DNA of 64,000 bases from Betaproteobacteria bacterium. GTDB lineage: Bacteria; Pseudomonadota; Gammaproteobacteria; Burkholderiales; SG8-41. Below, piece by piece: positions 297-60,519 of the stretch (positions are counted from its first letter, which is position 1; the number at the start of each line of letters is the position of its first letter). A model generated the notes under the pieces. The model was not told the DNA's origin. It saw only the letters and a program-made list of their open reading frames with translations, and searched no databases. The DNA is taken from contig CANKUB010000008.1 of NCBI GenBank assembly GCA_947486575.1, forward strand, positions 1,582-65,581. Direction: 5' to 3'. The translations under genes and the position numbers were made by a program.

Positions 297-317
297 TTTA
301 AAAACAAAGGGTTATAC
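297..317 (+). repeat. AT-rich boundary motif, copy 1
   Basis: TTTAAAAACAAAGGGTTATAC (core AACAA-AGGG-TTA), between the methyltransferase start (289) and the nitroreductase stop (320). Confidence 0.7.
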
Positions 318-319
318 GT

Positions 320-1177
320 TTACTTCAGGCTGAATTTTTTGTCGCGAATGAACGCGCCAAAATCAGACCGCTCCGGCACGGAATAGTGCCGGGCTTTGTC
401 TTCTGACCAGCCGTTGAATGGCACGTCGGGATACAGATTTTTGTAGCGTTGCTTGCGCAGCGGAAATAGCGCGTGTCGGCGCTGGTCGTAGGCGTCGATT
501 TTTTCTTTGATGCCGGATTCATCAAAGCGATCGGTGTGGGTGGTGATGTTTAAATCGAGGCGCGCGGTGACGTGGCCTTTTTCCAACGGGTAGCCCACGC
601 AGAGGCCAGCGATCGGGAATACGCCGTCGGGCAATCCGAGAATGTCGCTGGTTTCGCGCGGGTGATTGCGCACGGCGCTGATGGGCACGGTGCCCAAGCC
701 TGCGGCTTCGGCGGCACGAATGAATTGCGACAGGATGATGCCCGCGTCCACAGCGGCGTTCATGAAGTGATCGAGGTGTTCGTTGACGAATGGTTTACCG
801 CGCCATTCGCCGATCTGGCGGATGCGGCGGTTGTTGCCGCAGAACACCAGAAACACCGGCGCGTTGTTGATCCACGCCATGTCGGGGATGAGATCGGCGA
901 TGGCTTTGATTTTGGCGCGGTCGGCGACGTGGATAATGTCGGCCTGCTGCAAATCGGATTTGGAGGGCGCCGACAGCGCCGCCGCGTACAGGAGTTTCAA
1001 CAGCGCGGCGTCAACCGGCTGCTCCGTCCATTTGCGATGCGAGCTGTGTTCGAACATGCGCCGCAGTTCGCTGATGCCCTCGTCCGGCACGCCCTCAGGC
1101 ACGGAAAGAGACTCGCCAAAGCGGGTCAGTGTGGCTTTTTCGATACAGCTGGAATCACTGGATGGTGGCGGGTTCAT
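320..1177 (-). CDS. nitroreductase-family NAD(P)H oxidoreductase (NfsA-like)
   Basis: 285 aa ORF. Nitroreductase-fold signatures are present (HRKWTEQPVD, SAPSKSDLQQ, PVFLVFCG, AGLGTVPI). The long overlapping + strand ORFs are antisense shadows. Confidence 0.85.
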   Translation of the reverse strand: MNPPPSSDSSCIEKATLTRFGESLSVPEGVPDEGISELRRMFEHSSHRKWTEQPVDAALLKLLYAAALSAPSKSDLQQADIIHVADRAKIKAIADLIPDMAWINNAPVFLVFCGNNRRIRQIGEWRGKPFVNEHLDHFMNAAVDAGIILSQFIRAAEAAGLGTVPISAVRNHPRETSDILGLPDGVFPIAGLCVGYPLEKGHVTARLDLNITTHTDRFDESGIKEKIDAYDQRRHALFPLRKQRYKNLYPDVPFNGWSEDKARHYSVPERSDFGAFIRDKKFSLK

Positions 1178-1198
1178 CGGAAATATCCTGTGCGGGAA

Positions 1199-1230
1199 GT
1201 TAAAATATTTAATTAAAACAATAAGTTATG
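1199..1230 (+). repeat. AT-rich boundary motif, copy 2 (extended form)
   Basis: GTTAAAATATTTAATTAAAACAATAAGTTATG, 22 nt upstream of the nitroreductase start, in the divergent region with rpsP. Confidence 0.8.
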
Positions 1231-1299
1231 TTATTATATCAAGATTGCGTGCGCTTATTCGCCTGCGCGACACGCGCGACTTTATGCCGAGTACATTTC

Positions 1300-1329
1300 T
1301 TGCCTGCGGGCGGGAAAGTGTCGTAAAAT
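1300..1329 (+). promoter_or_regulatory. candidate sigma70 promoter of the rpsP operon
   Basis: TTGCCT (1300-1305), 18 bp spacer, TAAAAT (1324-1329), about 125 nt upstream of the rpsP ATG. Sequence match only. Confidence 0.35.
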
Positions 1330-1452
1330 CACGCCCTTTCGATTTTCGCCCGCGCTGCTGTCCGTTTTAAATTTATCGGCGTGGGATCAGGCATTTGTCG
1401 TAGTTTGTTTTATTTTTGTTTTACCGTCTCATACAGGCAAGGAAATAACCCC

Positions 1453-1734
1453 ATGGTAGTGATTCGTTTAGCGCGCGGTGGCGCCAAAAAGCGTCCTTTT
1501 TATAACGTCGTCGTGGCCGATTCGCGCCGCGCACGTGATGGCCGTTTTATTGAGCGTATCGGATTTTACGATCCCAAGGCCCCCGCTGGCCACGAAACCT
1601 TTCGCCTTGACCGTGCGCGTCTGACGCACTGGCAATCAGTCGGCGCGCAGCCTTCTGATACCGTCAGCCGCTTGGCCAAGCAATTTGGCAAGGTGGCGGG
1701 TGCTGTGCCCGCAGCAGAGTCCGCCCCTGCCTGA
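1453..1734 (+). CDS. rpsP: 30S ribosomal protein S16
   Basis: [41 protein letters not shown] is a canonical S16 N-terminus. An AAGGA RBS precedes the ATG at 1453. The ORF-track start at 1381 is an upstream extension. Confidence 0.95.
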
Positions 1735-3097: not shown

Positions 3098-3522
3098 ACT
3101 TGTTAGATGAACTTGAAAACGAAGAAATCGCGCGCTTGGGCAAGAATGTCCCGACATTTTCTGCGGGCGATACGGTTGTGGTCAGTGTCAAAGTGGTTGA
3201 AGGCGAGCGTAAGCGCGTTCAGGCCTACGAAGGCGTGGTGATTTCCAAGCGTAATCGCGGTTTGAATTCAAACTTTATCGTGCGCAAAATTTCCTCGGGC
3301 GAAGGTGTGGAACGTACGTTCCAGACCTACTCACCGTTGATCGCCAGCATTGAAGTCAAACGCCGTGGCGACGTTGGGCGCTCGAAGCTCTATTACCTGC
3401 GTAATCTCACGGGCAAGGCTGCGCGCATCAAGGAAAAACTGGCTGTGCGTGGGGCCGCTGCTGCGGCGGTGCCGGAAATGTTGCCGGAAGCCGCTGTACC
3501 GGCAGACGCTGCGGCAAAATAA
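3094..3522 (+). CDS. rplS: 50S ribosomal protein L19 (with Ala/Pro-rich C-terminal tail)
   Basis: ...[52 protein letters not shown].. is the L19 core. An ATGA overlap links it to the trmD stop. Confidence 0.95.
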
Positions 3523-3526
3523 ATTA

Positions 3527-3545
3527 TTTAAAATCAAATGCTTAC
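3527..3545 (+). repeat. AT-rich boundary motif, copy 3
   Basis: TTTAAAATCAAATGCTTAC (AATCAA-ATGC-TTA, an exact fit to WATCAANNNNTTR), 5 nt after the rplS stop. Confidence 0.6.
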
Positions 3546-6136: not shown

Positions 6137-7810
6137 GTGCCTGCCACGCAACATCGAGGGGCAGACCTGCTCGCGCGCGCCCTGTCGCGCGCGGGGGCGA
6201 GGCAGTTATTTTCGCTCTCCGGCAATCAGATCATGCCGGTGTATGACGCAGCGCTGGATGCAGGCCTCACCATCACGCACGTGCGTCACGAAGGTGCTGC
6301 GGTGCACATGGCCGATGCCTGGGGGCGACTCACCGGCGAACCGGGCATTGCACTGCTCACTGGCGGGCCGGGCCACGCCAACGGCATTGGCGCGTTGTAC
6401 ACCGCACTTGCTGCTGAATCGCCGCTGGTGATGCTCTCCGGCCACGCGCCGCTCAATCAATTGGGGCGCGGCGCGTTTCAGGAAATGGCGCAGGCCGATA
6501 TCGCCGCGCCCGTTACCAAGGCATCCTTTACGACGCGCAGCGTGGAATCCCTGGGGCACGATCTGGCACGCGCCATGCGCATCGCGCGCAGTGGCCGGCC
6601 AGGGCCGGTGCATCTGAGTTTGCCGTTTGATGTGCTTGAGCACACGGTAAAAGACCCGTACGTTTGCGCGCCGGATGAAGATGATTTTTACGCGCCCGCA
6701 CAATCGATCAGCGTGGCGCTAGCAGAAGAATTACTGGCGCAAATCAACAGAGCGAAAAGCCCGTTGATCATTGCCGGGCCAATGCTCGCCAGCAGCCGGG
6801 GGCAAAATCTGCGCGATCAACTCGCGCGTGCCACTGGCGCGCCGGTGGTGTGTATGGAAAGCCCGCGCGGCATCGCCGACCCGTGCCTGGGCGCGTTTGG
6901 CGATGTGTTGCCTGACGCTGATTTGATTGTGCTCATCGGCAAGCAAGCGGATTACACCTTGCGCTTCGCGCAGCCGCCCGCAGTGGGCAAGGCGTGCCGC
7001 TTCATCGTGGTCGACCCAGATATCAACGTGCTGCGGCAAAGTGTTGCTACCATCGGCCGCGACCGCGTGGCATTGAATGTGGTAGCGGATGTGTCGCCAT
7101 CGATACACGCACTTATCGAACGCGCTGAAAAAAATGCTTTAAAAACAAATAGTTGGATGAGCGAAGTAATAGCCGCTGTGGCGTACCGCCCGGCAGCATG
7201 GGCAAGCGCTACGGCTACGCAGGCAGGCACGCTGCACGCGCTGGAAATCGGCCGCGCGGTGCAAAAAATTCTCGATGATGCAGACGATCCGATACTCGTG
7301 GTCGATGGTGGCGAATTCGGTCAATGGGCGCAGGCTTGCATGAGCGCATCCACGCGCATCATCAACGGCCCGGCAGGTTCCATCGGCAGCGCAATACCAT
7401 TTGCGCTTGCCGCGCGTGTGGCGCGCCCGAATGCAACCGTAGTGGCGGTGCTGGGTGACGGCACGTTTGGTTTTCACATGGCCGAGTTTGATACGGCCGT
7501 GCGCCATCATCTGCCTTTTGTCGCCGTCGTTGGCAATGATTCGTGCTGGAATGCGGAGTATCAAATTCAATTGCGCACCTATGGCAACGAGCGCACCGTG
7601 GGTTGCGAGTTGTTGCCGGGGGCGGCGTACGAGAAGGCGGTTATTGCATTGGGCGGACATGGCGAGCGCGTTACCAGCGCCACTGAATTGCCGGGTGCAT
7701 TGGCGCGTGCGGTGAAAGCAAAATTGCCCGCTTGCGTAAACACCATGATTGCACGCATGCCTGCGCCGACGGTATCGCGTGCGGCTACCCCCAGTGGCGG
7801 GGCACACTAA
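6137..7810 (+). CDS. thiamine pyrophosphate-binding enzyme (acetolactate synthase large-subunit-like)
   Basis: 557 aa with a GTG start. It has the TPP N-domain (GADLLARAL...FSLSGNQIMPVYDA...HEGAAVHMADAW) and a C-terminal PP-binding motif (GDGTFGFHMAEFDTAVRHHLPFVAVVGNDSCWN). Confidence 0.85.
   Translation: MPATQHRGADLLARALSRAGARQLFSLSGNQIMPVYDAALDAGLTITHVRHEGAAVHMADAWGRLTGEPGIALLTGGPGHANGIGALYTALAAESPLVMLSGHAPLNQLGRGAFQEMAQADIAAPVTKASFTTRSVESLGHDLARAMRIARSGRPGPVHLSLPFDVLEHTVKDPYVCAPDEDDFYAPAQSISVALAEELLAQINRAKSPLIIAGPMLASSRGQNLRDQLARATGAPVVCMESPRGIADPCLGAFGDVLPDADLIVLIGKQADYTLRFAQPPAVGKACRFIVVDPDINVLRQSVATIGRDRVALNVVADVSPSIHALIERAEKNALKTNSWMSEVIAAVAYRPAAWASATATQAGTLHALEIGRAVQKILDDADDPILVVDGGEFGQWAQACMSASTRIINGPAGSIGSAIPFALAARVARPNATVVAVLGDGTFGFHMAEFDTAVRHHLPFVAVVGNDSCWNAEYQIQLRTYGNERTVGCELLPGAAYEKAVIALGGHGERVTSATELPGALARAVKAKLPACVNTMIARMPAPTVSRAATPSGGAH
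7138..7156 (+). repeat. AT-rich boundary motif, copy 4 (inside a CDS)
   Basis: TTTAAAAACAAATAGTTGG, in frame within the TPP-enzyme gene, encoding ...KNALKTNSW.... Confidence 0.75.
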
Positions 7811-9291: not shown

Positions 9292-9324
9292 GGTTAAATA
9301 ATGTTAAAAAACAATATATTACAT
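9292..9324 (+). repeat. AT-rich boundary motif, copy 5 (extended form, spans a start codon)
   Basis: GGTTAAATAATGTTAAAAAACAATATATTACAT. The Bug gene ATG (9301) and codons MLKNNILH lie inside the motif. Confidence 0.75.
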
Positions 9325-10286: not shown

Positions 10287-11162
10287 ATGAAAATTGACCT
10301 CCAGCAAATCGAAGATGCTTCGAAAGAAATCTACATACGCGCGCTGAAGCTGCTGCCGCCGGATATTAAAGAGGGCTTCAAACGCCTCGACGCAACGGAA
10401 ACCAATGCGACGGGCAAGGCCATACTCGGCACCATGATCCGTAATATCAAGGTAGCCGAAGCCAACACCAATCTGTTGTGCCAGGACACGGGTATTCCCA
10501 TCTACAACGTGGTAATTGGCACGGGCGTGGAAGTCGATGGTTACGCGCTGAAGCAGGCCATCATCCAAGGCTGTGCGCGCGCAACAAAAGAGCATCCGCT
10601 GCGCTCAAGCGTGGTGCACCCCACCACGCGTCAAAACGAACACACCTCGTGCGGTCGGGGCGTGCCGGTGATCAATATCGATTTCTCCAATGAAAACAAT
10701 ATGTTATCGATGGAAATGATTCCCAAGGGGTCGGGTTCTGAATTTAACTCGTGGCTGAAAATGGCGTTGCCTGCCGATGGTATCGACGCCATCAAGACCT
10801 TTGTGATTGATTGTGTGCTGGAGGCTGGTGGCAAGACGTGCCCGCCGACGATTGTCGGCGTGGGCGTGGGCGGCACGGCGGATCTGTGTGTGCATCTGTC
10901 AAAGGTGGCAGCTACCCGCGCGCTCGGAACCTCGTGCACTGATCCGGAAGGTGCCAAGCTGGAAAAAGAATTGAGCGGCGTGGTGAACAAGCTTGGCGTC
11001 GGGCCGCAGGGTTTGGGCGGTGACTCGACAGCGTTTGCCGTGCATGTGGAAACCGCCGCAACTCACATTACATTGAACCCGGTGGCGGTGAATATGCAAT
11101 GTCATTCGGCGCGTCGATCGCGCGCTACTTTCACGCCGCTGGGCTTAAGCTACGGATTCTGA
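10287..11162 (+). CDS. Fe-S type hydro-lyase alpha subunit (class I fumarate hydratase / L-tartrate dehydratase TtdA-like)
   Basis: ...LCQDTGIPIYNVVIG...PLRSSVV...IPKGSGSEFNS...CPPTIVGVGVGGTAD... matches the Fumerase N-terminal domain with conserved Cys ligands. Confidence 0.85.
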   Translation: MKIDLQQIEDASKEIYIRALKLLPPDIKEGFKRLDATETNATGKAILGTMIRNIKVAEANTNLLCQDTGIPIYNVVIGTGVEVDGYALKQAIIQGCARATKEHPLRSSVVHPTTRQNEHTSCGRGVPVINIDFSNENNMLSMEMIPKGSGSEFNSWLKMALPADGIDAIKTFVIDCVLEAGGKTCPPTIVGVGVGGTADLCVHLSKVAATRALGTSCTDPEGAKLEKELSGVVNKLGVGPQGLGGDSTAFAVHVETAATHITLNPVAVNMQCHSARRSRATFTPLGLSYGF

Positions 11163-13485: not shown

Positions 13486-13546
13486 TAACATTGTGGCGCG
13501 GCAGCTGCCAGGTAGCTGCCGGTGCAATCGCCGTCCGGTTGAATTG

Positions 13547-13570
13547 TTTAATCAATACAATCACTTATAA
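13547..13570 (+). repeat. AT-rich boundary motif, copy 6 (degenerate)
   Basis: TTTAATCAATACAATCACTTATAA (ATACAA-TCAC-TTA), ending 3 nt before the Ldh_2 ATG. Confidence 0.5.
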
Positions 13571-13572: not shown

Positions 13573-14583
13573 ATGCCTCTCGTTTCACTGGAACAACTGC
13601 AGACGCTCGTCTCACGCGCGCTGACGCGCGCGGGCGCTTCCAAATCGATGGCGCAATCTACTGCGCAGGCGCTGGTTGCAGCAGAAGCCGAAGGCCTCGG
13701 CGGTCATGGCCTGTCGCGCGTGGCGCTTTACTGCCTGCACTTGCGTGAAGGCCGCGCGTTGGGTAAAGCGAAGCCGAAAATCCTCAAGCGCAAGGGCGCA
13801 ACGGTGCTGGTCGATGCAGGCGGTGGACTGGCATTTCCTGCCTGCGCACTGGCTGTGAGAGAAGCGATTGCACGGGCCAAACGCTATGGCGTGAGCTTTG
13901 TGGGCGTGACCAACAGTCACCACATGGGTGCGGTGGCATACCATTTGGCACCCATTGCACAAGCGGGCATGGTGGGGCTGGCGTTTACCATTTCGCCAGC
14001 AGCAATCAACGCATGGGGCGGCACGCGCGCGTTCTATGGCACCAATCCGGTAGCGGCGGTTTTTCCGCGCAAGGACGCCGAACCGATCGTGGTGGATTTG
14101 TCGCTGACCGAAGTCACGCGCGGCAAGATCATGGTATATGCCAAGGAAGGCAAGTCCATCCCGTCGGGTTGGGCCGTCGATAAGGATGGCCATCCGACAA
14201 CCGATGCCAAAGCCGCGCTGACCGGCAGTCTGAATGCCATCGGTGGTGTTAAAGGCGCAGCGTTGGCGATGATGGTGGAAGTACTTAGCGTGGCGCTGAC
14301 CGGTGCCGCATTCAGTTTTGAAAACGATTCCTACTTTGAACCGGGAAATAAGCCGCGCATCGGCCACGCCATACTGGCGATAGATCCTGGCGCGCTAGCG
14401 GGTAGTGATGCGTATTTTTCCCGGCTGGAGGTGATGATCGCAGCCATGCTGCGTGATGAAGGTGTGAGGTTGCCGGGTGCACGGCGGCAGAAATTGATGA
14501 CCGCGGCAACAGCGCAGGGTTTGCAGATCGGGGATGTACAGGTGAAAGAATTGCTTGTATTGGCTGGCGTTAAAAGTATTTAA
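13573..14583 (+). CDS. Ldh_2-family oxidoreductase (malate/L-lactate/sulfolactate dehydrogenase family)
   Basis: 336 aa. ...AEAEGLGGHGLSR...VTNSHHMGAVAYH...FGTNP...GGVKGAALAMMVEVLS... is typical of the Ldh_2 family. Confidence 0.85.
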   Translation: MPLVSLEQLQTLVSRALTRAGASKSMAQSTAQALVAAEAEGLGGHGLSRVALYCLHLREGRALGKAKPKILKRKGATVLVDAGGGLAFPACALAVREAIARAKRYGVSFVGVTNSHHMGAVAYHLAPIAQAGMVGLAFTISPAAINAWGGTRAFYGTNPVAAVFPRKDAEPIVVDLSLTEVTRGKIMVYAKEGKSIPSGWAVDKDGHPTTDAKAALTGSLNAIGGVKGAALAMMVEVLSVALTGAAFSFENDSYFEPGNKPRIGHAILAIDPGALAGSDAYFSRLEVMIAAMLRDEGVRLPGARRQKLMTAATAQGLQIGDVQVKELLVLAGVKSI

Positions 14584-14599
14584 AAACATATAGTTATAC
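14569..14599 (+). repeat. AT-rich boundary motif, copy 7 (extended form, supplies a stop codon)
   Basis: GTTAAAAGTATTTAAAAACATATAGTTATAC. It encodes the last residues ...VKSI and the TAA stop of the Ldh_2 gene. Confidence 0.8.
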
Positions 14600-20423: not shown

Positions 20424-20443
20424 CATAAGCAATTGTTTTTAAA
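20424..20443 (-). repeat. AT-rich boundary motif, copy 8
   Basis: Reverse complement TTTAAAAACAATTGCTTATG, between the acyl-CoA dehydrogenase stop (20447) and the start of the binding-protein gene (20406). Confidence 0.8.
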
Positions 20444-20446
20444 CAA

Positions 20447-21631
20447 TTATTTCATGCGACGCACTGCTTTCAACCGTTGGGTGTTGTCGCCAGCGAGATG
20501 TGTCCAGATGATGCCATCGCGCACCAGCTTTTGTGTCATGGCGTCCATCATGCCTCCCCGCGCACCACTTGCGCCATGCACTGCCATGTTAAGTTTAGTG
20601 ACGCGTTGCAGTACGTCGGATGCATACGCCATGACCAGTACCGGGCTCAGCGATCCGTGCACCTTGGTGTCCATATCCCACGCAGTGCGCATGACGTACG
20701 AGCGCAGCGTTTCGGTGAGCATATGCATTTCGTGGATATTCATTTGCACAAGCTGGTGATCGTACAACGCCTTGCCCGCGCGCTTTTCTTTCTTGGCAAA
20801 CTGCATGGCGTACTCGGCTGCCGCATCACAAATGCCGAGTGCGTTGGCCGCCAGTTCAAAATCGCTGAATTCAGCGGCTACGCCACTGCGCACCTTCTGG
20901 CCCTTATGCGGTTCGCCCACCACGTTGGCGTGAGGCACGCGCGCGTTTTCGAAAATGAGTTCGGCGTTCTGATAAAAGCGCCAGCCAGCCTTGTTAAACA
21001 CCTTGCCGATGCGGAAACCCGGCGTGCCCAGCGGCACCATGAATACGGTGGTGCCTTCGCGTGCGACGACGCTGGTGTCTGAGCGCGAATTCACGAAAAA
21101 CAGTTTGCCAACCGACCCATTGGCGATAAATGTTTTTTCGCCATTCAGAATCCATTCGTCGCCCTTGCGTTCGGCCTTGACCCGAAAGCCTGAAGTCACA
21201 TCATCCGGCGGGTAGCGGTTATCGGAGCCGGAATTGGGCTCGGTACTGGCCGAGCCAATCACATACGTGTCGTCGGCGAGAAAGGGCGTGAGAAAGCGAT
21301 CCTTTTGGTCTTTGGTGCAAAACTCAGCGATCAGGTGACTCCACTTCCAGTTCTGGCTGAACGCCTTGGACATCGCGCTGTCCGCCTTGGCAAGTTCGGC
21401 CATGACGATGGCCTGGGTAACAAAATCTGCGCCCACGCCGCCCAATTCTTTGGGCACGGTGAACGTGCGAAACCCCAGCTTGGAGCCTGCCTTGATGATG
21501 TCCCAATCCCACGGTTCACGGCCGCCTTCAATCTGGTCGCGCTTGAGCGATGCCGGCAGCAGCACTTCCCTGGCGAAATGGCGGGCCTCGTTTTTCCAGC
21601 GGCTTTGTTCTTCGTTTAGTGCGAAATCCAT
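20447..21631 (-). CDS. acyl-CoA dehydrogenase family protein
   Basis: 394 aa with ACAD N, middle and C domain patterns (...GSASTEPNSGSD...FIANG...GGTDAM-type C-terminal helices). Confidence 0.9.
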   Translation of the reverse strand: MDFALNEEQSRWKNEARHFAREVLLPASLKRDQIEGGREPWDWDIIKAGSKLGFRTFTVPKELGGVGADFVTQAIVMAELAKADSAMSKAFSQNWKWSHLIAEFCTKDQKDRFLTPFLADDTYVIGSASTEPNSGSDNRYPPDDVTSGFRVKAERKGDEWILNGEKTFIANGSVGKLFFVNSRSDTSVVAREGTTVFMVPLGTPGFRIGKVFNKAGWRFYQNAELIFENARVPHANVVGEPHKGQKVRSGVAAEFSDFELAANALGICDAAAEYAMQFAKKEKRAGKALYDHQLVQMNIHEMHMLTETLRSYVMRTAWDMDTKVHGSLSPVLVMAYASDVLQRVTKLNMAVHGASGARGGMMDAMTQKLVRDGIIWTHLAGDNTQRLKAVRRMK

Positions 21632-29598: not shown

Positions 29599-29619
29599 GT
29601 AAGTATTTGTTTTTATTAT
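29599..29619 (-). repeat. AT-rich boundary motif, copy 10
   Basis: Reverse complement ATAATAAAAACAAATACTTAC. It fills the 20 nt gap between the aminotransferase stop and the ThrC-like ATG. Confidence 0.8.
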
Positions 29620-32555: not shown

Positions 32556-32559
32556 ATAG
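32538..32559 (-). repeat. AT-rich boundary motif, copy 11 (supplies C-terminal codons and stop)
   Basis: Reverse complement CTATTTAAAAACAATTACTTAC. On the + strand it encodes ...VSNCF-TAA, the tail of the RidA gene. Confidence 0.8.
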
Positions 32560-32564
32560 TTTTT

Positions 32565-38210: not shown

Positions 38211-38741
38211 ATGCGATTGACTGACGACGGGCTTATCTGCGGTGATGGCGTGCGCCATGTGGCGTCGCCCAATTGCGATACACGACCGGTTGATGCGCAG
38301 ATCGAGTTGATCGTCGTGCATAACATCAGTTTGCCGCCGGGTGAGTTTGGCGGGTCGGGCATTGTCGATTTGTTTCTCAATCGCTTGCAGCCGCACGGGC
38401 ATGCGTACTATGCCGGTATCGCGCATCTCAGGGTGTCAGCGCATTTTTTGATACGGCGCGATGGCGAGTTGATTCAGTTCGTGTCGTGCGCACAGCGCGC
38501 CTGGCATGCAGGCGTATCGAGCTGGCGGGGGCGCGAACGCTGCAACGATTTTTCGCTGGGTATCGAACTGGAAGGTACCGATGAAATTCCGTTCGAGGAT
38601 GCGCAATACACGCGCCTGCGCGCACTGATCGCCCTGTTGCGGACCCACTATCCCATTGCGGATGTCCAAGGCCATGCCGACGTAGCGCCGGGACGCAAAA
38701 CTGATCCGGGTCCGGCATTTGATTGGTTAAGAGTTAAATAG
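38211..38741 (+). CDS. ampD: 1,6-anhydro-N-acetylmuramyl-L-alanine amidase AmpD
   Basis: ...IVVHNISLPPGEFGG...SAHFLIRRDGELIQFV...AWHAG.S.W.GR..CNDFSLGIELEG...GHADVAPGRKTDPGP.FDW are canonical AmpD/amidase_2 motifs. Confidence 0.9.
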   Translation: MRLTDDGLICGDGVRHVASPNCDTRPVDAQIELIVVHNISLPPGEFGGSGIVDLFLNRLQPHGHAYYAGIAHLRVSAHFLIRRDGELIQFVSCAQRAWHAGVSSWRGRERCNDFSLGIELEGTDEIPFEDAQYTRLRALIALLRTHYPIADVQGHADVAPGRKTDPGPAFDWLRVK

Positions 38742-38764
38742 TCAATTAAAACAATTGGTTATAG
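38733..38764 (+). repeat. AT-rich boundary motif, copy 12 (extended form)
   Basis: GTTAAATAGTCAATTAAAACAATTGGTTATAG. It overlaps the ampD stop codon TAG. Confidence 0.85.
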
Positions 38765-42263: not shown

Positions 42264-42266
42264 TTA

Positions 42267-42290
42267 TTTAATAAAAACAATAAGTTAATG
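42267..42290 (+). repeat. AT-rich boundary motif, copy 13
   Basis: TTTAATAAAAACAATAAGTTAATG, 4 nt after the nrdA stop. Confidence 0.85.
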
Positions 42291-44653: not shown

Positions 44654-44687
44654 ATCGTCAGTATGCATTTGTAGAATTTAAATTTTA

Positions 44688-44711
44688 TATAATAAAAACA
44701 TATACTTATAT
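44688..44711 (+). repeat. AT-rich boundary motif, copy 14
   Basis: TATAATAAAAACATATACTTATAT in the AT-rich intergenic region upstream of phnD. A weaker second copy, GTTAAAAACTTCTGTATG, follows at 44720-44737. Confidence 0.7.
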
Positions 44712-44965: not shown

Positions 44966-46042
44966 ATGCAATTCCCAGTCACACGCTTTCTCCCGTCGCG
45001 GCTCATCCGGCCCGCGCAATTGATCGCGTACGCGGTTCTTACCGTGACGTTCGCGCTGCTAGCGCAGGGTGCTTATGCGCAAGCCGATTGCAAGAATCGT
45101 GGCGATCTCGACGCGCTGTATTGCGACGAGAACAAAGACCTAGTGGCTGATGCACCTGCAGACGCCAAGCGCTTCAAAAATCCGTCGACCCTGGTGTTTA
45201 CCTACACGCCCGTGGAAGATCCGGCCGTCTACGAAAATATCTTCAAGCCCTTTACCGATTACCTCGGCCAATGCACAGGCAAGCGCGTGGTGTTTTATCA
45301 GGTGCAATCCAACGCGGCTGAAATCGAAGCCATGCGTTCGGGGCGCCTGCATGTCGGTGGCTTTTCCACCGGCCCCACCAACTACGCGGTGAATATCGCC
45401 GGTGCGGTGCCGTTCGCGGTAAAAGGCGGCGAAAAGGAATTGCAGGGCTACAACCTCATCATGATCGTGAAGAAAAGCAGCCCCTATCAGAAAATGGCGG
45501 AACTCAAAGGTAAAAAAGTCGCGCACGTACAGCCTTCATCCAACTCCGGCAATCTGGCGCCGCGCGCGCTCTTTCCCGCGCTGGGCTTGACCCCCGATCA
45601 GGATTACAAAGTGCTCTACTCAGGCAAGCACGACAATTCCATCACCGGCGTCGCCACCGGCGATTACGATGCCGCGCCCGTGGCCTCCGATGTATTCAAG
45701 CGTATGGCCGCACGCGGGCAAATCAAGGAAGACGACTTCCGTATTATATGGCGCAGCGAAACCTTCCCCACATCGTCATTTGCCTACGCACATGATCTTG
45801 AGCCGAAGTTGCGTGACACGATGACGAAATGTTTTTACGACTATCGCTTTCCGGCAGAGATGAAAAAAGCGTTTGACGGCGCCGATCGTTTCTTCCCGAT
45901 TACCTATCAAAAAGATTGGGCCATCGTGCGCAAAGTCGCCGAAGGCAGCGGCGAAAAATTCAACAGCGCGGCGTTTGAAAACCTGAAAAAGAAAGAAGCC
46001 GAAGCGCTGGCCGCCAAAGCACAGCAGGCGCAGAAAAAATAA
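44966..46042 (+). CDS. phnD: phosphate/phosphite/phosphonate ABC transporter substrate-binding protein
   Basis: Signal peptide, then ...LVFTYTPVEDPAVYENIFKPFTDYLGQCTGKRVVFYQVQSNAAEIEAMRSGRLHVGGFSTG... is the PhnD-family pattern. It is followed by phnC and phnE genes. Confidence 0.85.
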   Translation: MQFPVTRFLPSRLIRPAQLIAYAVLTVTFALLAQGAYAQADCKNRGDLDALYCDENKDLVADAPADAKRFKNPSTLVFTYTPVEDPAVYENIFKPFTDYLGQCTGKRVVFYQVQSNAAEIEAMRSGRLHVGGFSTGPTNYAVNIAGAVPFAVKGGEKELQGYNLIMIVKKSSPYQKMAELKGKKVAHVQPSSNSGNLAPRALFPALGLTPDQDYKVLYSGKHDNSITGVATGDYDAAPVASDVFKRMAARGQIKEDDFRIIWRSETFPTSSFAYAHDLEPKLRDTMTKCFYDYRFPAEMKKAFDGADRFFPITYQKDWAIVRKVAEGSGEKFNSAAFENLKKKEAEALAAKAQQAQKK

Positions 46043-46065
46043 TTCAATAAAAACAATGTGTTATG
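46043..46065 (+). repeat. AT-rich boundary motif, copy 15
   Basis: TTCAATAAAAACAATGTGTTATG, starting 1 nt after the phnD stop, inside the phn operon. Confidence 0.85.
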
Positions 46066-49158: not shown

Positions 49159-50452
49159 GCGGCGCTTTGCCTGAAGCAATATCCATGATCATGCGCGTGG
49201 CGAGATACAGTCGCGGCTCGATGGATGAAATCACAATGTATTCGGCGTTGGTGGTGTGCGCACCAAATCCCTGCAGGCCGAAGCCCTCGACCACCGGATT
49301 ATTGGTTTTGAGTCCCGCGAACGCGGCATCGGTGCCGCCGCCGCGCGGCTCGTCGTCCGCCTTGATCTTGTAACCCACTTCGGCGGCGACCTTCTGCCCG
49401 TAGTGCGCCAGTGCGAGCGAGGCGGGCTTGGCTTCCAACGGCGGGCGGCCCCGCTCGAAGTTCAGTTCCACCTGCGCCTGCGGCAAGAGCTTGTTCTTGA
49501 TGCGTTCCTTTAACTTGGCCTCGATGCCATCGAGGTCCTGCACGCGCAGTACGCGGATATTCATGGTCGCTTGCGCGCCGGGCGGAATCATATTGCGTAC
49601 GAGGCCGCCTTGCGCCAGCACCCAGTTCGCGCGCAAGCCAATTTTTGCATCGGAGAGATCACGCGATTGCAGTATCTGGTGCGCGAGCTCATCCACCGCG
49701 TTGATGCCTAAATGCGGCGCGCTGCCCGAGTGTGCCGCGCGTCCGCGCACGGTGATGGTGGCGTTAGCGCTACCGCTGGTGGCGACGGACAGTATCGCCT
49801 GCTGCGGTGTGCCGCCGCCTTCGAACGACAGCGTCGCATCATGCTCCGCGCCGAGACGAGCAAGCACGTGGCGCGAAGCGGGCGAACCCACTTCCTCGTC
49901 GGCCGTCACCAGCACGGTGAGCGTGCCGTAGTCGCGGAAATTCAGCACGTTCAACATCGTCATCGTGTGCAAGATCAGCGCCATGCCCTGGCGGTTATCG
50001 GCGATGCCCAGTCCGTAGGCGCGATCGCCGTCGATCTTGTACGGCTGGCCGGCGAGCATGCCCTTGCGATAGACCGTATCCATGTGCGCCAGCAGCAGAA
50101 TTTTTTTCGTGCCCGTGCCAGTAAACGTGGCGCGTAGCGTGCGGCCGATTTTCTCCGGCGAGCCGCTGTCGCGCGTGGCTTCCGCGTTGCCGTCGATCAT
50201 GTCGACCTTGGCACCGAGTTGGGTAAAGCGTCTGGTGAGCGCCGCGCCGATCTGTTCAAGCCCTTCGAGTTCGTAGCTGCCGGATTCGATTTGAACCAGT
50301 TCTTTTAGCGTGTCGAGCAGCAACGGCTTCTCTTTTTGCGCGAGCTTCTGCACGGCATCCATCGCCAGTGCGGGTGTGGCGAGGCCAGCGCCCAGCCACA
50401 AGACTGCCGCCAGAACTCTTACGTAACTTTTTGATTTAAAGATATTTTTCAT
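49151..50452 (-). CDS. M20-family glutamate carboxypeptidase (carboxypeptidase G2-like), secreted
   Basis: Signal peptide, then LLLAHMDTVY, GLGIADNRQG, ADEEVGSP, GGGTDA. Start set at ATG 50452 (the ORF-track TTG at 50461 is 3 codons upstream). Confidence 0.85.
   Translation of the reverse strand: MKNIFKSKSYVRVLAAVLWLGAGLATPALAMDAVQKLAQKEKPLLLDTLKELVQIESGSYELEGLEQIGAALTRRFTQLGAKVDMIDGNAEATRDSGSPEKIGRTLRATFTGTGTKKILLLAHMDTVYRKGMLAGQPYKIDGDRAYGLGIADNRQGMALILHTMTMLNVLNFRDYGTLTVLVTADEEVGSPASRHVLARLGAEHDATLSFEGGGTPQQAILSVATSGSANATITVRGRAAHSGSAPHLGINAVDELAHQILQSRDLSDAKIGLRANWVLAQGGLVRNMIPPGAQATMNIRVLRVQDLDGIEAKLKERIKNKLLPQAQVELNFERGRPPLEAKPASLALAHYGQKVAAEVGYKIKADDEPRGGGTDAAFAGLKTNNPVVEGFGLQGFGAHTTNAEYIVISSIEPRLYLATRMIMDIASGKAPLR
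50422..50441 (-). repeat. AT-rich boundary motif, copy 16 (inside the signal-peptide codons)
   Basis: Reverse complement CTTTAAATCAAAAAGTTACG (AATCAA-AAAG-TTA), encoding ...FKSKSY... at codons 6-11 of the first M20 peptidase. Confidence 0.55.
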
Positions 50453-50479: not shown

Positions 50480-51769
50480 TTACTTAAGGGGTGCCTTGCC
50501 GCTCGAAATATCCATGATCATGCGCGTGGCCAGATACAAACGTGGCTCAATTGAATTCATGAATATGAATTCGGCGTTGGTGGTGTGCGAGCCGAAGCCG
50601 TGCAGGCCAAAGCCTTCGATGACCGGCGCAGTCGTTTTTAGAGAAGCATTGGCCGCGTCAGTAAAGCCGCCCGAAGCATCTTCCAGCACGGCAAGCTTAC
50701 GCCCCAGTTCGCCATAGATGGTTTGCGCGTGCGCAGCGAGTACGCGTGACGTGGGTTTGGGCTCCAGCGGCGGAAAGCGGCGTTCGAAGACGAGTTCGAC
50801 TGATGATTCCGGCAGCAGCTTGTTCTTGACGCGCTCTTTAAGTTTTTGTTCGATACCGTCGTAATCGACGATACGCGCCACGCGCACATCGGCTTGTGCC
50901 TGTGCGCCGGGCGGAATCATGTTGATAACGATGCCCGCGCGTGACAGCGTCCAGTTTACTTTCACGCCAGTTGCCGGATCGGACAAATTGCGCATTTGAA
51001 TGATCTGATGCGACAGTTCCTCCAGCGCATTGATGCCTTGTTCGGGTGCGGCACCCGCATGCGAGGCGCGTCCGCGCACATTGAGCATGGCAATGGCGTG
51101 TCCGCTGGTGGCAAGACGCACGCGATCTTCCTTTTCATTGCCGCCACCCTCAAAGGACATCACGGCATCGTGGGCGGCGCCCAGCCGCATGTGGTGATTG
51201 CGTGCACCGGGCGAACCTATTTCTTCGTCGGCATTGATGAACACGGTGATGGTGCCGTAGTCGCGAAATTTCATGGCGTTAAGCATGGTGATCGTGTGCA
51301 GTATCATCGCGACACCGTGGCGATTGTCCGCAATGCCCAGACCATAGGCGCGATCGCCCTCGATTTTGAACGGTTGCTGTTTGGCCATGCCGCGCGGGTA
51401 CACGGTATCCATGTGCGCCATCAGCATGATCTTCTTCGTTCCCGTGCCGGTAAAAGTAGCCTTCACCATCTTGCCGATCTTTTCAGGCGTGTCAGACAGG
51501 CGCACGGTGTCCGATTCCACCGGCTCGATCAGTTCGACCTTGCCGCCGAGCGACTGTAGGCGTTTGGCGATATCGTTGGCGATCTTGTCGAGTTCTTCGA
51601 GTTCGCGGCTGCCGGATTCAAACGCCACCAGCGCCTTCAGCGTGTCCATCAATGCCGGTTTTTCTTTTTGCGCCAGCGACCACACCGGCTCGAGTGGTGC
51701 GCCGCGAGCAGCGCTTGCCGCAAACCAAAGGAAGGCGACACAACCTATTGTTTTAATTAATTTTTTCAT
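50480..51769 (-). CDS. M20-family glutamate carboxypeptidase (carboxypeptidase G2-like), secreted; tandem paralog
   Basis: Alignable end to end with the neighbouring M20 gene (MLMAHMDTVY, GLGIADNRHG, ADEEIGSP). Start set at ATG 51769 (MKKLIKTIG...). Confidence 0.85.
   Translation of the reverse strand: MKKLIKTIGCVAFLWFAASAARGAPLEPVWSLAQKEKPALMDTLKALVAFESGSRELEELDKIANDIAKRLQSLGGKVELIEPVESDTVRLSDTPEKIGKMVKATFTGTGTKKIMLMAHMDTVYPRGMAKQQPFKIEGDRAYGLGIADNRHGVAMILHTITMLNAMKFRDYGTITVFINADEEIGSPGARNHHMRLGAAHDAVMSFEGGGNEKEDRVRLATSGHAIAMLNVRGRASHAGAAPEQGINALEELSHQIIQMRNLSDPATGVKVNWTLSRAGIVINMIPPGAQAQADVRVARIVDYDGIEQKLKERVKNKLLPESSVELVFERRFPPLEPKPTSRVLAAHAQTIYGELGRKLAVLEDASGGFTDAANASLKTTAPVIEGFGLHGFGSHTTNAEFIFMNSIEPRLYLATRMIMDISSGKAPLK
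51739..51760 (-). repeat. AT-rich boundary motif, copy 17 (inside the signal-peptide codons)
   Basis: Reverse complement TTAATTAAAACAATAGGTTGTG, encoding ...LIKTIGC... at codons 4-10 of the second M20 peptidase. Confidence 0.75.
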
Positions 51770-54210: not shown

Positions 54211-54464
54211 AAAGGTGATGAAAAAAGGCAATCACCCCGCATCGGCAGCACGTTGTTGACGAGTAGCACTGCAAGTGCTGAACGCTGCTGGTGCAGTGAT
54301 TCGTCTGCTCGGGTTATTCTAGTAAACTTTTAAATGATTGATTTAATTGAATTTTTATTTTTGATGCTACGGCGAAATAAAATGGACTTGGGGGTGCGCA
54401 AGTGCCAGAAAATACAGCCGGATAGGCGTCAATGTCGCCAATCGATGTATAGTCGCAATTGTTC

Positions 54465-54716
54465 CTACGGTTGATCGGCTACTACTCGCACTTCGCTGTC
54501 ATGGCGCGCATGCGCAAGCACGGCGACTAAGTTGGTCGTGGTACCGCTCGGCATAAACGCGCCAGCTTCCTTGCCGGTGCGTTCGGCGGCAAGCGCTTCA
54601 AGAGGCATCACCGTTTCATCGCCATTGCGTGAATCATCGCCGTAGCTCGCTACGCGCATGGCGTCGAGCATCGCTTCGGTGGGGCGGCTAATGGTGTCGC
54701 GGCGTAAATCAATAAT
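54465..54716 (-). pseudogene. 5' fragment of a threonine aldolase gene (ltaE'), start codon lost
   Basis: Reverse-frame translation IIDLRRDTISRPTEAMLDAMRVASYGDDSRNGDETVMPLEALAAERTGKEAGAFMPSGTTTNLVAVLAHA... matches 62 of the first 76 codons of the intact ltaE (hand alignment). ATG is replaced by ATT. Similarity ends near 54489 and a stop follows at 54465. Confidence 0.8.
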
Positions 54717-54724
54717 ATTAAAAT

Positions 54725-54747
54725 CTCAATAAAAACATATAGTTAAG
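54725..54747 (+). repeat. AT-rich boundary motif, copy 18
   Basis: CTCAATAAAAACATATAGTTAAG, between the ltaE' fragment and the HAD gene. The HAD stop codon (TAA on the minus strand) is the complement of the motif's GTTAAG end. Confidence 0.8.
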
Positions 54748-57759: not shown

Positions 57760-57776
57760 TTTATTAATAACTCCGC

Positions 57777-57810
57777 GGTTAAATAATCTAATAAAAACAA
57801 TAGGTTACAT
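57777..57810 (+). repeat. AT-rich boundary motif, copy 19 (extended form)
   Basis: GGTTAAATAATCTAATAAAAACAATAGGTTACAT, between the PEP-mutase-family start (57759) and the TauD stop (57842). It shares the GGTTAAATAAT 5' extension with copy 5. Confidence 0.85.
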
Positions 57811-57841
57811 TGATTTCTTGGGCGAGGCGACCAGCACTGCG

Positions 57842-58714: not shown

Positions 58715-58868
58715 GGCGTTTCCTTGCGGGTAAGTTTTTTGTGTTGTTATTGCGCGCGCCACTGCACAGGAGCGCTGATTGATGGCTGTTGATCCGGAAT
58801 CCATTTATGATAGCACCGAGCCGCTGCCATGCATGCAGCGAGTCCATCATAAATTTGGGGGAGACCAC

Positions 58869-59855
58869 ATGCGTGCGCTGTTGCCAATGTTGTACCTGTC
58901 GGCATGGGCCGCGCTGTTGAGCGATTCGGCAATGGCCGCCGACTGGAAGCCTGCCAATCCGGTAGAGATCGTCATTCCCAATGCGCCCGGCGGCGGCAAT
59001 GATGCAGTGGGGCGGTTGTTACAGCGTATCTGGCAAGAGCGCAAGTTAACGCCTGTGGCGGGCATTGTGGTCAACAAAACGGGCGGCGGCGGCACGGTGG
59101 CGCTGAATTATCTTGCGCAAAAGCCGAACGATCCGCATGCGATGGGCGTGGTGTCGATTACGCAGCAACTGAACTACATCACCGGCAGCAGCCCGCTGCG
59201 GCATCGTGATTTCACGCCGCTGACTGTGATGATCGGCGATTTCATCGGTTTTGCGGTGCGCGCGGATTCGCCGATCATGACCGGCCGCGATTTGATTGAG
59301 CGACTGAGAAAAGATGCGTCATCGTTGGCAGCCGGTGTTACCGCTATCGGTGGCAATAACCACATAGCGTATGTGCTCGCAGCACGCGCCGCGGGTGCCG
59401 ATACACGCAAACTGCGAACACCGGTGTTTCAATCATCGGGTGAATCACTGACGGCGCTGCTCGGCGGCCATATTGATTTGCACCTGGGTAGTGTCGGGCC
59501 GCTGACCAAACATCTCGAAGCGGGCCGCGTGCGCATTGTTGCACTCACGTCGGACAAACGCCTGACTGGCCCGTTCGCGGCCATCCCCACGTGGAAGGAG
59601 CAGGGCGTCGCAGGCACCTTCAACACCTGGCGCGGCCTGTGGGCGCCGAAAGGTTTGAGTGCCGAACAAATTGCGTATTGGGACGACGTGCTGGAAAAAG
59701 TGTCGCGCGATGCGTTGTGGCGCGAAACGCTGGCCACTAATCATTGGGAAAGTGATTACCGCAACAGCCGCGAGACCATGCGTTACCTTGACACCGTGCA
59801 TGCCGAATTGCGGGATGTGTTGAAGGAGTTGGGGTTGGCTAAGCGGCTGGATTGA
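58869..59855 (+). CDS. Bug/TctC-family substrate-binding protein
   Basis: Signal peptide MRALLPMLYLSAWAALLSDSAMA, then KPANPVEIVIPNAPGGGNDAVGRLLQRIW...GGGGTVA. GGGGGAG RBS. Confidence 0.85.
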   Translation: MRALLPMLYLSAWAALLSDSAMAADWKPANPVEIVIPNAPGGGNDAVGRLLQRIWQERKLTPVAGIVVNKTGGGGTVALNYLAQKPNDPHAMGVVSITQQLNYITGSSPLRHRDFTPLTVMIGDFIGFAVRADSPIMTGRDLIERLRKDASSLAAGVTAIGGNNHIAYVLAARAAGADTRKLRTPVFQSSGESLTALLGGHIDLHLGSVGPLTKHLEAGRVRIVALTSDKRLTGPFAAIPTWKEQGVAGTFNTWRGLWAPKGLSAEQIAYWDDVLEKVSRDALWRETLATNHWESDYRNSRETMRYLDTVHAELRDVLKELGLAKRLD

Positions 59856-59886
59856 CGGCGTGAACACAGTGTAATAACATTGTTAT
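59852..59886 (+). promoter_or_regulatory. candidate mazEF promoter with overlapping palindromic operator
   Basis: TTGACG (59852-59857), 17 bp spacer, TAACAT (59875-59880). Inverted repeat ATAACA-t-TGTTAT (59874-59886) overlaps the -10. Confidence 0.45.
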
Positions 59887-59908
59887 CACATTCAATTGGG
59901 TGGTCAGT

Positions 59909-60172
59909 ATGAAAGAATCCATGCAGGTCAATATTCGTCCCATAGGCAATTCCCGCGGCATTGTCATTCCCAAGCCGCTGCTCGCGCAGGTGGGCTTGAG
60001 TAGCGGTATGGCCGAAATTGCCATAGAAGGCGGTGCGCTGGTGCTTCGCAAGCCGCGTAAACCGGCGCGTAGTGGCTGGGCGGATGCCGCAATTAAAATT
60101 GCCGAAAGCGACGATGATGCGCTGGTACTGGGTGAATTCGGCAACGCGGCGGATGCGGAGCTGACTTGGTAA
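59909..60172 (+). CDS. mazE: type II antitoxin, AbrB/MazE/SpoVT family
   Basis: MKESMQVNIRPIGNSRGIVIPKPLLAQVGL... is a SpoVT-AbrB swapped-hairpin motif. It overlaps the toxin gene. Confidence 0.75.
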   Translation: MKESMQVNIRPIGNSRGIVIPKPLLAQVGLSSGMAEIAIEGGALVLRKPRKPARSGWADAAIKIAESDDDALVLGEFGNAADAELTW

Positions 60173-60492
60173 AGTTGGTGCGCGGGCAAATCTGGCTGGT
60201 CAACCTTGATCCCACTATTGGCAGCGAAATCAAAAAATCAAGACCTTGTGTCGTGGTGTCTCCACCCGAGATGCATGATCATTTGCGTACGCTGATTGTT
60301 GCGCCGATGACAACCAAGAGCCGCCCAGCGCCGTTTCGTGTGGCGGTAACGCATGCAGGAAAGAAGGGATTGATACTTTTGGATCAGCTGCGTGCCATTG
60401 ATAAGGCGCGGCTTGTGCGCAAGTCGGGCACGGTGCCCGCGCAAACGCTGGCGCTTGTTTTGGCCACGTTGCAAGAAGTGTTTGTTGAGTAA
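60166..60492 (+). CDS. mazF: type II toxin, PemK/MazF-family endoribonuclease
   Basis: ...VRGQIWLVNLDPTIGSEIKKSRPCVVVSP...IVAPMTT...LLDQLRAIDKARL is the PemK/MazF signature. Start TTG 60166 or GTG 60178. Confidence 0.8.
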   Translation: MVKLVRGQIWLVNLDPTIGSEIKKSRPCVVVSPPEMHDHLRTLIVAPMTTKSRPAPFRVAVTHAGKKGLILLDQLRAIDKARLVRKSGTVPAQTLALVLATLQEVFVE

Positions 60493-60495
60493 AAA

Positions 60496-60519
60496 ATCAA
60501 TTAAAACAAATGGTTATGG
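60496..60519 (+). repeat. AT-rich boundary motif, copy 20
   Basis: ATCAATTAAAACAAATGGTTATGG, between the mazF stop (60492) and the SGNH lipoprotein ATG (60529). Its 3' end abuts the GGAGG RBS. Confidence 0.85.

Follow-up and report, generated by a model that had tools for sequence, protein, structure and literature searches.

The stretch of DNA analysed here, hereafter the window, comprises 64,000 nucleotides from a Betaproteobacteria bacterium (assembly GCA_947486575.1, contig CANKUB010000008.1, positions 1,582 to 65,581), and the element of interest is an AT-rich motif of 27 nt that recurs throughout it. The window is identical in sequence to part of an 81-kb freshwater metagenome scaffold (ENA ERZ28613009, scaffold_719); contigs of the NCBI metagenome-assembled genome (MAG) GCA_947472555.1 also match it, and the nearest genomes in a species-representative collection are uncultured Burkholderiales/Betaproteobacteria MAGs that show approximately 85% identity at ribonucleotide reductase (RNR). 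Database gene calls together with Pfam scans place 68 genes and 67 gene junctions in the window, the GC content of which is 57%. Dispersed over this map, at a density of about one per 3 kb, are 21 strong and two weak copies of the motif (consensus AAAAAAnTnAATAAAAACAAATAGTTA; Table 1), where approximately none would be expected, AT-matched non-coding controls included.

The copies were aligned on an invariant C-A...T-T anchor, and a 28-nt weight matrix was trained on 19 copies listed in an earlier reading of the sequence (the original prediction). These 19 form a sharply separate class, scoring 30-45 bits (22-43 bits in leave-one-out scoring); the next matches in the window stand at 27 bits (54342-) and 25 bits (61889-), and the remainder reach at most 18 bits. 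In the same 64 kb, AAAACAANNNNTTA occurs 14 times against 0.07 expected and WAWCAANNNNTTR 21 times against 3.2 expected, and there are 15 matches of at least 25 bits, as compared with an expectation of 0 from a Markov model of non-coding DNA only and of 0.03 from a model of the AT-richest spacers only. The motif is real, and its abundance lies far beyond chance or base composition; the matrix scan against composition-matched controls that the original prediction had proposed as a check finds it far commoner in the window than in AT-matched background. All 20 copies listed there are present where they had been placed, 19 of them strong and the one at 13547 weak (16.8 bits), and copies 3 and 16 do match WATCAANNNNTTR exactly. 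Of seven additional look-alikes, those at 54342(-) and 61889(-) are true copies, the other five being weak or non-copies. A fit to WA(A/T)CAA-N4-TTR claimed for 17 of 20 copies comes to 16 of 20 on recounting, and the GTTAAA 5' extension noted on several copies is no separate element: it is the motif's own A-tract, in many cases fused to a TAA stop. Literature searches for the exact motif sequence, and for earlier accounts of such site arrays, returned nothing relevant.

Inspection of a logo pooled from 56 copies, drawn from the window and nine related loci, shows that conservation is confined to a block of 27 nt (-15 to +11, counted from the anchor), which holds approximately 38 bits; beyond this block the information falls to zero. 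Within it lie an A-tract (-15 to -10), an AA step (-6/-5), a WA(A/T)CAA core (-1 to +4) and a TTR element (+9 to +11). Among the 19 training copies, the C and the A that follows it are invariant, WA(A/T)CA(A/T) is present throughout, and the third core position is A in 17; the TT is likewise invariant, and the R position is A in 17 copies and G in two, in agreement with the 56-copy logo. Around the four invariant bases, the training copies show a strong preference for A/T. Relatives use T and A equally at the third core position, with observed/expected ratios of 7.7 for WATCAA and 7.8 for WAACAA.

This anatomy resembles that of a site bound by integration host factor (IHF). A full IHF site consists of four elements spread over approximately 34 bp (PMC1874591; bioRxiv 10.1101/382655), namely WATCAA, TTR, two proline-intercalated AA steps 9 bp apart and an A-tract of 4-6 nt in the 5' half (PMC1874591). 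Each has a counterpart in the motif: the core takes the place of a WATCAR core, TTR follows 4 nt 3' of it, the AA steps at -6/-5 and +3/+4 stand 9 bp apart at the positions of proline intercalation, and the A-rich block ends 8 nt before the core, as it does in the H' site of phage lambda (27750-55 vs 27764). In the lambda genome, H' presents its A-tract at 27750-55, TT at 27759-60, TATCAA at 27764-69 (with AA at 27768-69 as its second step) and TTG at 27774-76, and these elements align base for base with positions -15 to -10, -6/-5, -1 to +4 and +9 to +11 of the motif. The A that replaces T at core position 3 is the only apparent deviation from an IHF site, and it is shared by lambda cos I1 (AAATAAAAACATTAAGTTA), which is nearly the clade consensus, this A included. 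cos I1 is a strong IHF site located between the terminase sites R3 and R2 (PMC4856287). Judged by spacing and base identity, the motif is probably an IHF-type site.

A site for some other abundant, clade-specific DNA-binding protein whose specificity overlaps that of IHF, such as an additional HU/IHF paralogue, a global regulator or a protein of the H-NS or H1 type, could also be imagined. The very high information content would suggest long, specific contacts, the motif has been amplified in one clade although IHF is universal, and a gene for a Lys/Ala-rich H1-like protein is conserved beside one conserved copy. The motif is asymmetric, however, and over its 27 nt the A-tract and kink steps are exactly IHF-like, whereas typical transcription-factor sites are dyads or direct repeats; moreover, we know of no H1-like or H-NS-like protein that reads bipartite, asymmetric sites of this kind. 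We consider such a protein an unlikely reader of the motif. The geometry lends no support to the H1-like protein that the original prediction had named as a candidate binder. The proposal of IHF-type bending sites, also made there, is well supported at the level of sequence by the four canonical elements at H' spacing, by the likeness to cos I1 and by the recovery of lambda IHF sites with the matrix.

That recovery comes from a blind test in which the window-derived matrix was scanned over the 48.5-kb lambda genome (approximately 97,000 positions). The top five matches fall at 35762 (31 bits), 85 (cos I1, 26 bits), 23283, 35662 and 27695, the last being attP H2 in exact register; cos I1 and H2 therefore rank second and fifth of all positions. 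The matches ranked first and fourth (35762 and 35662) lie approximately 180 and 80 bp upstream of pL and are presumed to be the IHF sites upstream of this promoter. In texts citing Giladi et al., IHF is described as stimulating pL from upstream sites. A matrix restricted to the core places H2, H1 and H' at ranks 24, 34 and 97 of 96,978 lambda positions.

About ten uncultured Burkholderiales genomes related to that of the window carry the motif at high density. At the RNR locus, the four closest MAGs (L007-L010) carry it, and it is essentially absent from L011 (65% GC) and from 75 other betaproteobacterial loci around RNR (1.4 Mb). At the TrmD locus, six relatives (L212-L217, 90-78% identity) carry 3-7 strong copies per 21 kb, and L218 (75% identity, 64% GC) has none. 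The observed/expected ratio of AAAWCAA-N4-TTA is approximately 104 in the window and 75 in close relatives, as compared with 3.6 elsewhere. The amplification is a property of one clade. A metagenome-wide scan with AATWAAAACAATWRGTTA gave, among the matches listed, mostly isolated ones in unrelated taxa and is uninformative on the lineage.

Copies are retained between species in spacers that cannot otherwise be aligned. Because much of the clade sequence examined (approximately 64 kb of window and 250 kb from relatives) is syntenic, such positions are few, yet they recur: the copy at the Amidase_2 stop codon (38750+) is at the same place in all four close relatives, with a degenerate remnant in L011; the copy after the H1-like gene (44697+) is present in the three relatives with contigs that reach it (L007, L009 and L010); the copy over the opening codons of one M20 peptidase gene (51752-) has an equivalent in L007 and L010; and copies at a Cytochrom_C_asm/EamA junction and abutting the stop codon beside an SLT-domain gene are each found in three of three species. 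The conservation in orthologous spacers that the original prediction had suggested examining is accordingly seen for several sites, with unalignable flanks. The copy upstream of rpsP (1217+), the centre of which lies approximately 121 nt upstream of the predicted rpsP transcription start, is present in all seven motif-bearing species examined at that locus. Its distance to the conserved promoter TTGCCT-N18-TAAAAT (1300-1329 in the window) shifts by about 10 or 125 nt between species, roughly whole helical turns, which would fit a bend-dependent promoter role for this copy. Other copies are specific to a species, namely those at the L19 stop codon, at the NrdA stop codon (42276+, absent in five of five relatives examined) and between ACAD and SBP genes, and the FAD_binding_2/Ldh_2 junction, which holds a weak copy in the window, carries one of 44.5 bits in L212. 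Together with the loss of one core in a single strain, described below, the species-specific copies point to turnover around a conserved core set. A hydantoinase HydA/HydB junction was set aside as a candidate for site relocation, the L214 genes there being paralogues.

Other elements were seen as well, at these loci and in unrelated contigs. The nrdA-nrdB spacer of L007-L011 (L007:12870-13000) holds a shared element, GGCG-GAATCAGGGAAGA..., which the window species lacks and in place of which it has a motif copy. Upstream of the SLT-domain transglycosylase gene, a promoter-like, strongly conserved TTGAACA-N17-TAGAAT precedes a conserved leader of approximately 110 nt (L007:20850-21004, with equivalents in L009 and L010) that has no Rfam match at the gathering threshold and may represent a cis-regulatory RNA not yet described. 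Among the metagenome matches listed, the exact 18-mer AATAAAAACAATWRGTTA starts a few nucleotides from the 3' end of a tRNA in several unrelated contigs (L192:4145-4235, with the tRNA confirmed by Rfam, and L153, L196, L130, L131 and L177), an arrangement that would fit IHF sites at tRNA-linked integration sites. The unrelated contigs L096, L127 and L188 share a longer element around the 18-mer, GCAACGGGCG...motif...ACTACGAACCAGGCG, in which no tmRNA or other Rfam family reaches the gathering threshold.

Some copies lie inside genes. In the gene for a thiamine pyrophosphate (TPP) enzyme, a copy occurs at the identical codon (approximately amino acid 335, in an interdomain linker) in six species. 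Amino-acid identity over its ten codons is 0.68, as compared with 0.86 gene-wide, and yet third-position identity is 0.90, the highest of 547 ten-codon windows, and GC content at third positions is 0.0-0.1 against 0.63-0.76 for the gene. Given this pairing of low amino-acid identity with top-ranked third-position identity and low third-position GC, the DNA motif is maintained here in opposition to codon bias and irrespective of the protein. A variable loop in the fumarase alpha gene has the residues (E/K)NN(M/E) both in L216, where it holds a copy of 29.5 bits, and in the window species, and it reads TPDE, RRDE or KPDE in other species, which use GC-rich codons at this point; the motif core arose by substitution in an existing four-residue loop.

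Alignment of the copies with the gene map shows that, in the window, they occupy 17 of 49 co-directional, two of nine convergent and one of nine divergent junctions, and that 12-13 of 22 touch or overlap a stop codon, even where the spacer is long. In relatives (n=27), five abut a stop codon, four abut a start codon, 12 lie free in spacers and six are inside coding sequence (CDS); seven of 19 divergent spacers are occupied, five of those seven representing one orthologous site. The original prediction held that almost every copy lies within a few nucleotides of a start or stop codon, and this describes the window (16 of 22) and not the related genomes (9 of 27). The label 'boundary motif' is therefore overstated, stop-codon adjacency being a tendency of the densest genome, that of the window species, and no rule of the clade. 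A reading in which divergent promoter regions are avoided and placement follows a stop-codon rule failed in the relatives. A promoter reading (UP element plus -35) was rejected on finding both orientations and, for some copies, a distance of 1-11 nt from their end to a start codon. Sigma-54 promoters, as possible partners of IHF, gave 48 matches against 55 expected, none of them paired with a copy.

The same placement bears on whether the motif could act in RNA, where an AU-rich, unstructured stretch between cistrons would promote translation initiation without a Shine-Dalgarno sequence or direct mRNA processing, a role of the kind that the original prediction had also listed. Several copies do fill short spacers that lack a Shine-Dalgarno sequence (303, 20437, 29611 and 32550), and the mean folding energy of the motif, -0.8 kcal/mol, shows it to be unstructured. 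Nevertheless, copies run in both orientations relative to transcription (approximately 14 sense and five antisense in the window; copy 303+, for instance, is antisense to neighbours that are both on the minus strand), they occur in divergent and convergent spacers, hundreds of nucleotides from starts and deep inside CDS, and a lack of structure leaves the invariant C-A...T-T unexplained. The mixture of orientations and spacer types argues for a function at the level of DNA, and a signal in RNA is highly improbable, to the point of being essentially excluded. Terminator-like hairpins are not enriched in the window, with 19, 27 and 15 against approximately 26-27 expected in the three successive 20-kb stretches of positions 1-60,000, and over the same positions no terminator lies beside a copy except for a weak hairpin at the weak copy 13556. 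One convincing intrinsic terminator was seen there, after nrdB (43685-43712); the lineage may rely little on canonical hairpin terminators.

Copies are also spaced more evenly than chance would have it. The coefficient of variation (CV) of the gaps in the window is 0.54, as compared with 0.93 for uniform placement (P = 0.003), and the spacing remains even when set against random choices among real gene junctions (P = 0.008-0.019); no gap exceeds 6.2 kb, where approximately 10.5 kb would be expected for the largest. Gaps pooled from relatives have a CV of 0.47, with none below 1.9 kb.

Even spacing is likewise a property of DNA uptake sequences, and the motif could, as the original prediction also proposed, be a signal of this type, comparable to the uptake signal sequence (USS) of Pasteurellaceae or the DNA uptake sequence (DUS) of Neisseriaceae: a competence receptor would prefer DNA bearing the motif, uptake and recombination would spread it wherever it is tolerated, and its likeness to IHF sites would be either chance or the outcome of a requirement for bendable DNA common to both. 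The density of about one per 3 kb fits, as do over-representation in both orientations in the window and ten related loci, an information content far beyond what site specification needs, and restriction to one clade with an unchanged consensus across species. So do copies accommodated in poorly conserved protein segments through AT-rich codons and under synonymous-site constraint, an arrangement also reported for the Pasteurellaceae USS, and the window encodes the type IV pilus regulators PilS and PilR. Against these resemblances, the sequence is unrelated to the known USS or DUS cores and AT-rich; most copies are intergenic, with about six of 22-27 in CDS (approximately one quarter touch CDS) rather than many in genes; there are no inverted pairs forming terminators and no hairpins at copies; and the rpsP-upstream copy, at roughly whole-turn distances from its promoter, suggests a local function. 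The four-element IHF geometry and the near-identity with cos I1 would moreover have to be coincidence. We regard an uptake signal as quite unlikely, and a third, independent family of DNA uptake sequences as very unlikely.

Among known systems, the nearest to the motif is the RIB/RIP (BIME-1) family of Escherichia coli, in which, according to PMC3333891 and PMC7826290, where Boccard & Prentki 1993 is cited, IHF-binding repeats lie at the 3' ends of transcription units and have been proposed to act in supercoiling or domain structure. Both systems consist of repeated, genome-wide IHF-type sites that lie, at least in part, in spacers after genes and between co-directional genes. A RIB/RIP element, however, is an IHF-binding L linker flanked by two repetitive extragenic palindromes (REPs) and belongs to a REP/RAYT-related repeat system, whereas the copies described here have no palindromes, conserved flanks or signs of mobility (inverted flank matches are not in excess among the 56 copies) and also occur inside genes and upstream of promoters. 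The comparison with RIP and bacterial interspersed mosaic elements (BIMEs) drawn by the original prediction thus holds for function and in part for location, and fails for membership, as REP palindromes are absent. Lambda H' and cos I1 share the four elements at identical spacing over 27 nt, cos I1 being almost the clade consensus, yet they are single sites in recombination and packaging complexes, as opposed to chromosomal sites at approximately one per 3 kb, nearly all of them near the optimum. The Correia elements of Neisseria carry an IHF site and, like the motif, are repeats scattered between the genes of a betaproteobacterium, next to which they bring such a site. They are, however, miniature inverted-repeat transposable elements (MITEs), approximately 100-150 bp long, bounded by terminal inverted repeats and associated with a TA duplication, and the motif lacks the inverted repeats, the duplication and a body of this length.

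These comparisons lead to the possibility that the copies are a tiny mobile or repeat element (MITE, REP/BIME-like or RAYT-mobilised) spread by transposition. Many near-identical copies of high information content would be expected of such an element, and one pair shares approximately 50 nt (9295-9340 and 57775-57825). Flanks of the copies, though, are no different from shuffled sequence, both for terminal inverted repeats (5.4 vs 5.3 nt) and for hairpins (-12.1 vs -11.8 kcal/mol), in agreement with the original prediction, which set REP hairpins and MITE-type repeats aside; conservation ends with the 27 nt; no presence/absence indels separate ten same-species contigs, the apparent structural differences of L004 and L005 being scaffold gaps of Ns, and no empty orthologous site was seen to differ from a filled one by a clean insertion of approximately 27-30 bp with a target-site duplication; the fumarase core was made by substitution in an existing loop; and in-frame CDS copies stand at one codon in six species. 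Rfam searches of the window and selected loci placed no family at any copy. With no terminal inverted repeats, no flanking hairpins and zero information outside the block, the motif is not a REP, BIME, MITE or Correia-like element, and spread by transposition, too, is essentially excluded and may be assigned a probability close to nil. The stretch shared by the pair, which runs around copy 57796 (57775-57825) and the 5' end of a TctC gene at 9301 (9290-9340) and reads GGTTAAATAAT..AAAAACAATA..TTACAT..ATTTCTTG, lacks a start codon at the former place; it could be what remains of the beginning of a TctC gene, or else a segment duplicated together with the copy.

We favour the view, with a probability of roughly 60%, that the copies constitute a clade-wide family of near-optimal sites for IHF or for the IHF-type member of the HU/IHF family in this lineage. 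Each 27-nt site would offer a 6-nt A-tract, a proline-intercalated AA step, WA(A/T)CAA with the second AA step 9 bp away, and TTR, and IHF, once bound, would bend the DNA through a U-turn at every one. Most sites lie in short AT-rich intergenic spacers; in long operons that lack a spacer, they are accommodated in tolerant stretches of CDS, namely linkers, loops and first codons. As a whole, the array would be architectural, its regular, sharp bends compacting the chromosome or delimiting supercoil domains, and single copies, such as that upstream of rpsP, would have been co-opted for promoter geometry. Regular spacing, a lack of preferred orientation and the upkeep of copies inside CDS suggest this chromosome-level role, whether through bends or through supercoil-domain barriers, which we put forward tentatively, as a possibility falling somewhat short of even odds. 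A stronger version, in which a selection-maintained, regular array of IHF sites is the primary code for chromosome folding or supercoil domains, written into CDS over codon usage where operons lack a spacer, is doubtful.

Several observations weigh against IHF-type sites as the explanation. A tblastn search with E. coli IhfA, IhfB and HupA found no ihfA, ihfB or hup on approximately 400 kb of clade loci, and that the clade has IHF is an assumption based on how nearly universal the protein is among Proteobacteria. The amplification is clade-specific although IHF occurs universally, so that more than the existence of IHF is needed to explain it. The sites hold approximately 38 bits where 12-13 bits would suffice for one site per 3 kb, an excess more typical of repeats or of uptake sequences maintained by drive than of regulatory sites. 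Among the ten same-species contigs, copies are no more conserved than CDS, in a comparison whose 0.06% divergence offers too little variation to conclude on constraint (five footprint single-nucleotide polymorphisms stem from two events only), and in strain L003 the core of copy 46052+ has been destroyed by a C-to-G change. In the lambda scan, column-shuffled matrices, which are also AT-rich, often fall near IHF sites; when verified sites only are counted, they place at least two among the top five in 8.5% of cases (P = 0.085), and when the presumed pL sites are counted too, the probability of at least four of five is below 0.001. The lambda test is supportive, though weak when confined to the verified sites, and the argument for IHF-type sites would rest mainly on geometry and sequence identity.

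Table 1. Copies of the motif in the window, named by anchor position and strand.
Copy	Position	Strand	Score (bits)	Context
303+	288..314	+	36.0	Fills 30-nt spacer from nitroreductase stop to start of next gene
1217+	1202..1228	+	44.9	Divergent spacer upstream of rpsP
3533+	3518..3544	+	36.5	Exact WATCAANNNNTTR; on L19 (rplS) stop codon, convergent spacer; window species only
7144+	7129..7155	+	35.3	In TPP-enzyme CDS, ~amino acid 335, M/C-domain linker
9310+	9295..9321	+	30.4	TctC/Bug start codon and first codons; partly conserved in relatives
10695+ (weak, core only)	10680..10706	+	17.9	Variable loop of fumarase alpha gene
13556+ (weak)	13541..13567	+	16.8	FAD_binding_2/Ldh_2 spacer
14585+	14570..14596	+	38.4	Overlaps Ldh_2 stop codon, at start of 134-nt spacer
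20437-	20426..20452	-	41.7	40-nt ACAD/SBP spacer, overlaps ACAD stop; sense
26395+	26380..26406	+	43.0	In hydantoinase A CDS, C-terminal domain, ~amino acid 617
29611-	29600..29626	-	35.2	Fills 20-nt aminotransferase/PALP spacer; antisense
32550-	32539..32565	-	41.1	RidA 3' end to TctC start codon; antisense
38750+	38735..38761	+	40.5	On Amidase_2 stop, at start of 600-nt spacer before nrdA
42276+	42261..42287	+	43.2	On NrdA stop
44697+	44682..44708	+	35.5	168 nt after H1-like gene, 256 nt before phnD
46052+	46037..46063	+	40.6	On PhnD stop, phnD/phnC spacer
50435-	50424..50450	-	33.3	Exact WATCAANNNNTTR; first codons of M20 peptidase gene
51752-	51741..51767	-	37.0	First codons of paralogous M20 peptidase gene
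54342-	54331..54357	-	27.0	Free in 298-nt spacer; outside main list of original prediction
54734+	54719..54745	+	37.5	TTA is reverse complement of Hydrolase_3 TAA stop; antisense
57796+	57781..57807	+	40.1	82-nt TauD/PEP-mutase spacer; antisense
60505+	60490..60516	+	42.4	On PemK stop, 11 nt before GDSL-lipase start, upstream of its Shine-Dalgarno sequence
61889-	61878..61904	-	25.0	Spans 6-nt convergent spacer, overlaps both stop codons

Some neighbouring features deserve mention in their own right. An open reading frame (ORF) at 44167-44514 (+) encodes a Lys/Ala/Pro-rich, histone-H1-like protein (MAKAAKKSGKTTGKKANN...); the database gene calls omit it, Pfam gives no match, and a similar ORF stands at the equivalent place in L007, L009 and L010, approximately 165 nt upstream of the conserved motif copy. 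A 68-aa ORF at 54465-54671 (-) corresponds to the N-terminal part of an aminotransferase, the one whose gene lies at 51781-52812 (Beta_elim_lyase hit), and looks like a duplicated gene fragment; it sits in a toxin-antitoxin patch (PIN/PhdYeFM, VapB), with a PemK pair further on (59909-60492). Two adjacent short genes of the dienelactone hydrolase family (15798-16178 and 16184-16660) may be one split or frameshifted gene, and the same-species contig L088 has this pair called differently. The only tandem arrangement of the motif that was seen fills the 42-nt hydantoinase A/B spacer of L214 (286-327), where two copies lie 26 nt apart.

In the usual description, IHF recognises a loosely defined consensus at regulatory sites that are scattered, and the repeat-like families of IHF sites known to us all ride on REP/BIME or MITE elements. 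Extrapolation from one copy per 3 kb suggests that the genomes of this clade may instead hold hundreds to about a thousand stand-alone, near-optimal IHF-type sites. If IHF does bind them, the lineage would be a natural system whose sequence encodes a regular pattern of sharp bends, in which it would become testable whether nucleoid-associated proteins set the boundaries of topological domains and how strong selection on such an architecture is. If the motif were an uptake signal instead, uptake sequences would extend beyond Pasteurellaceae and Neisseriaceae. On either reading, the motif provides a practical marker for this uncultured lineage.

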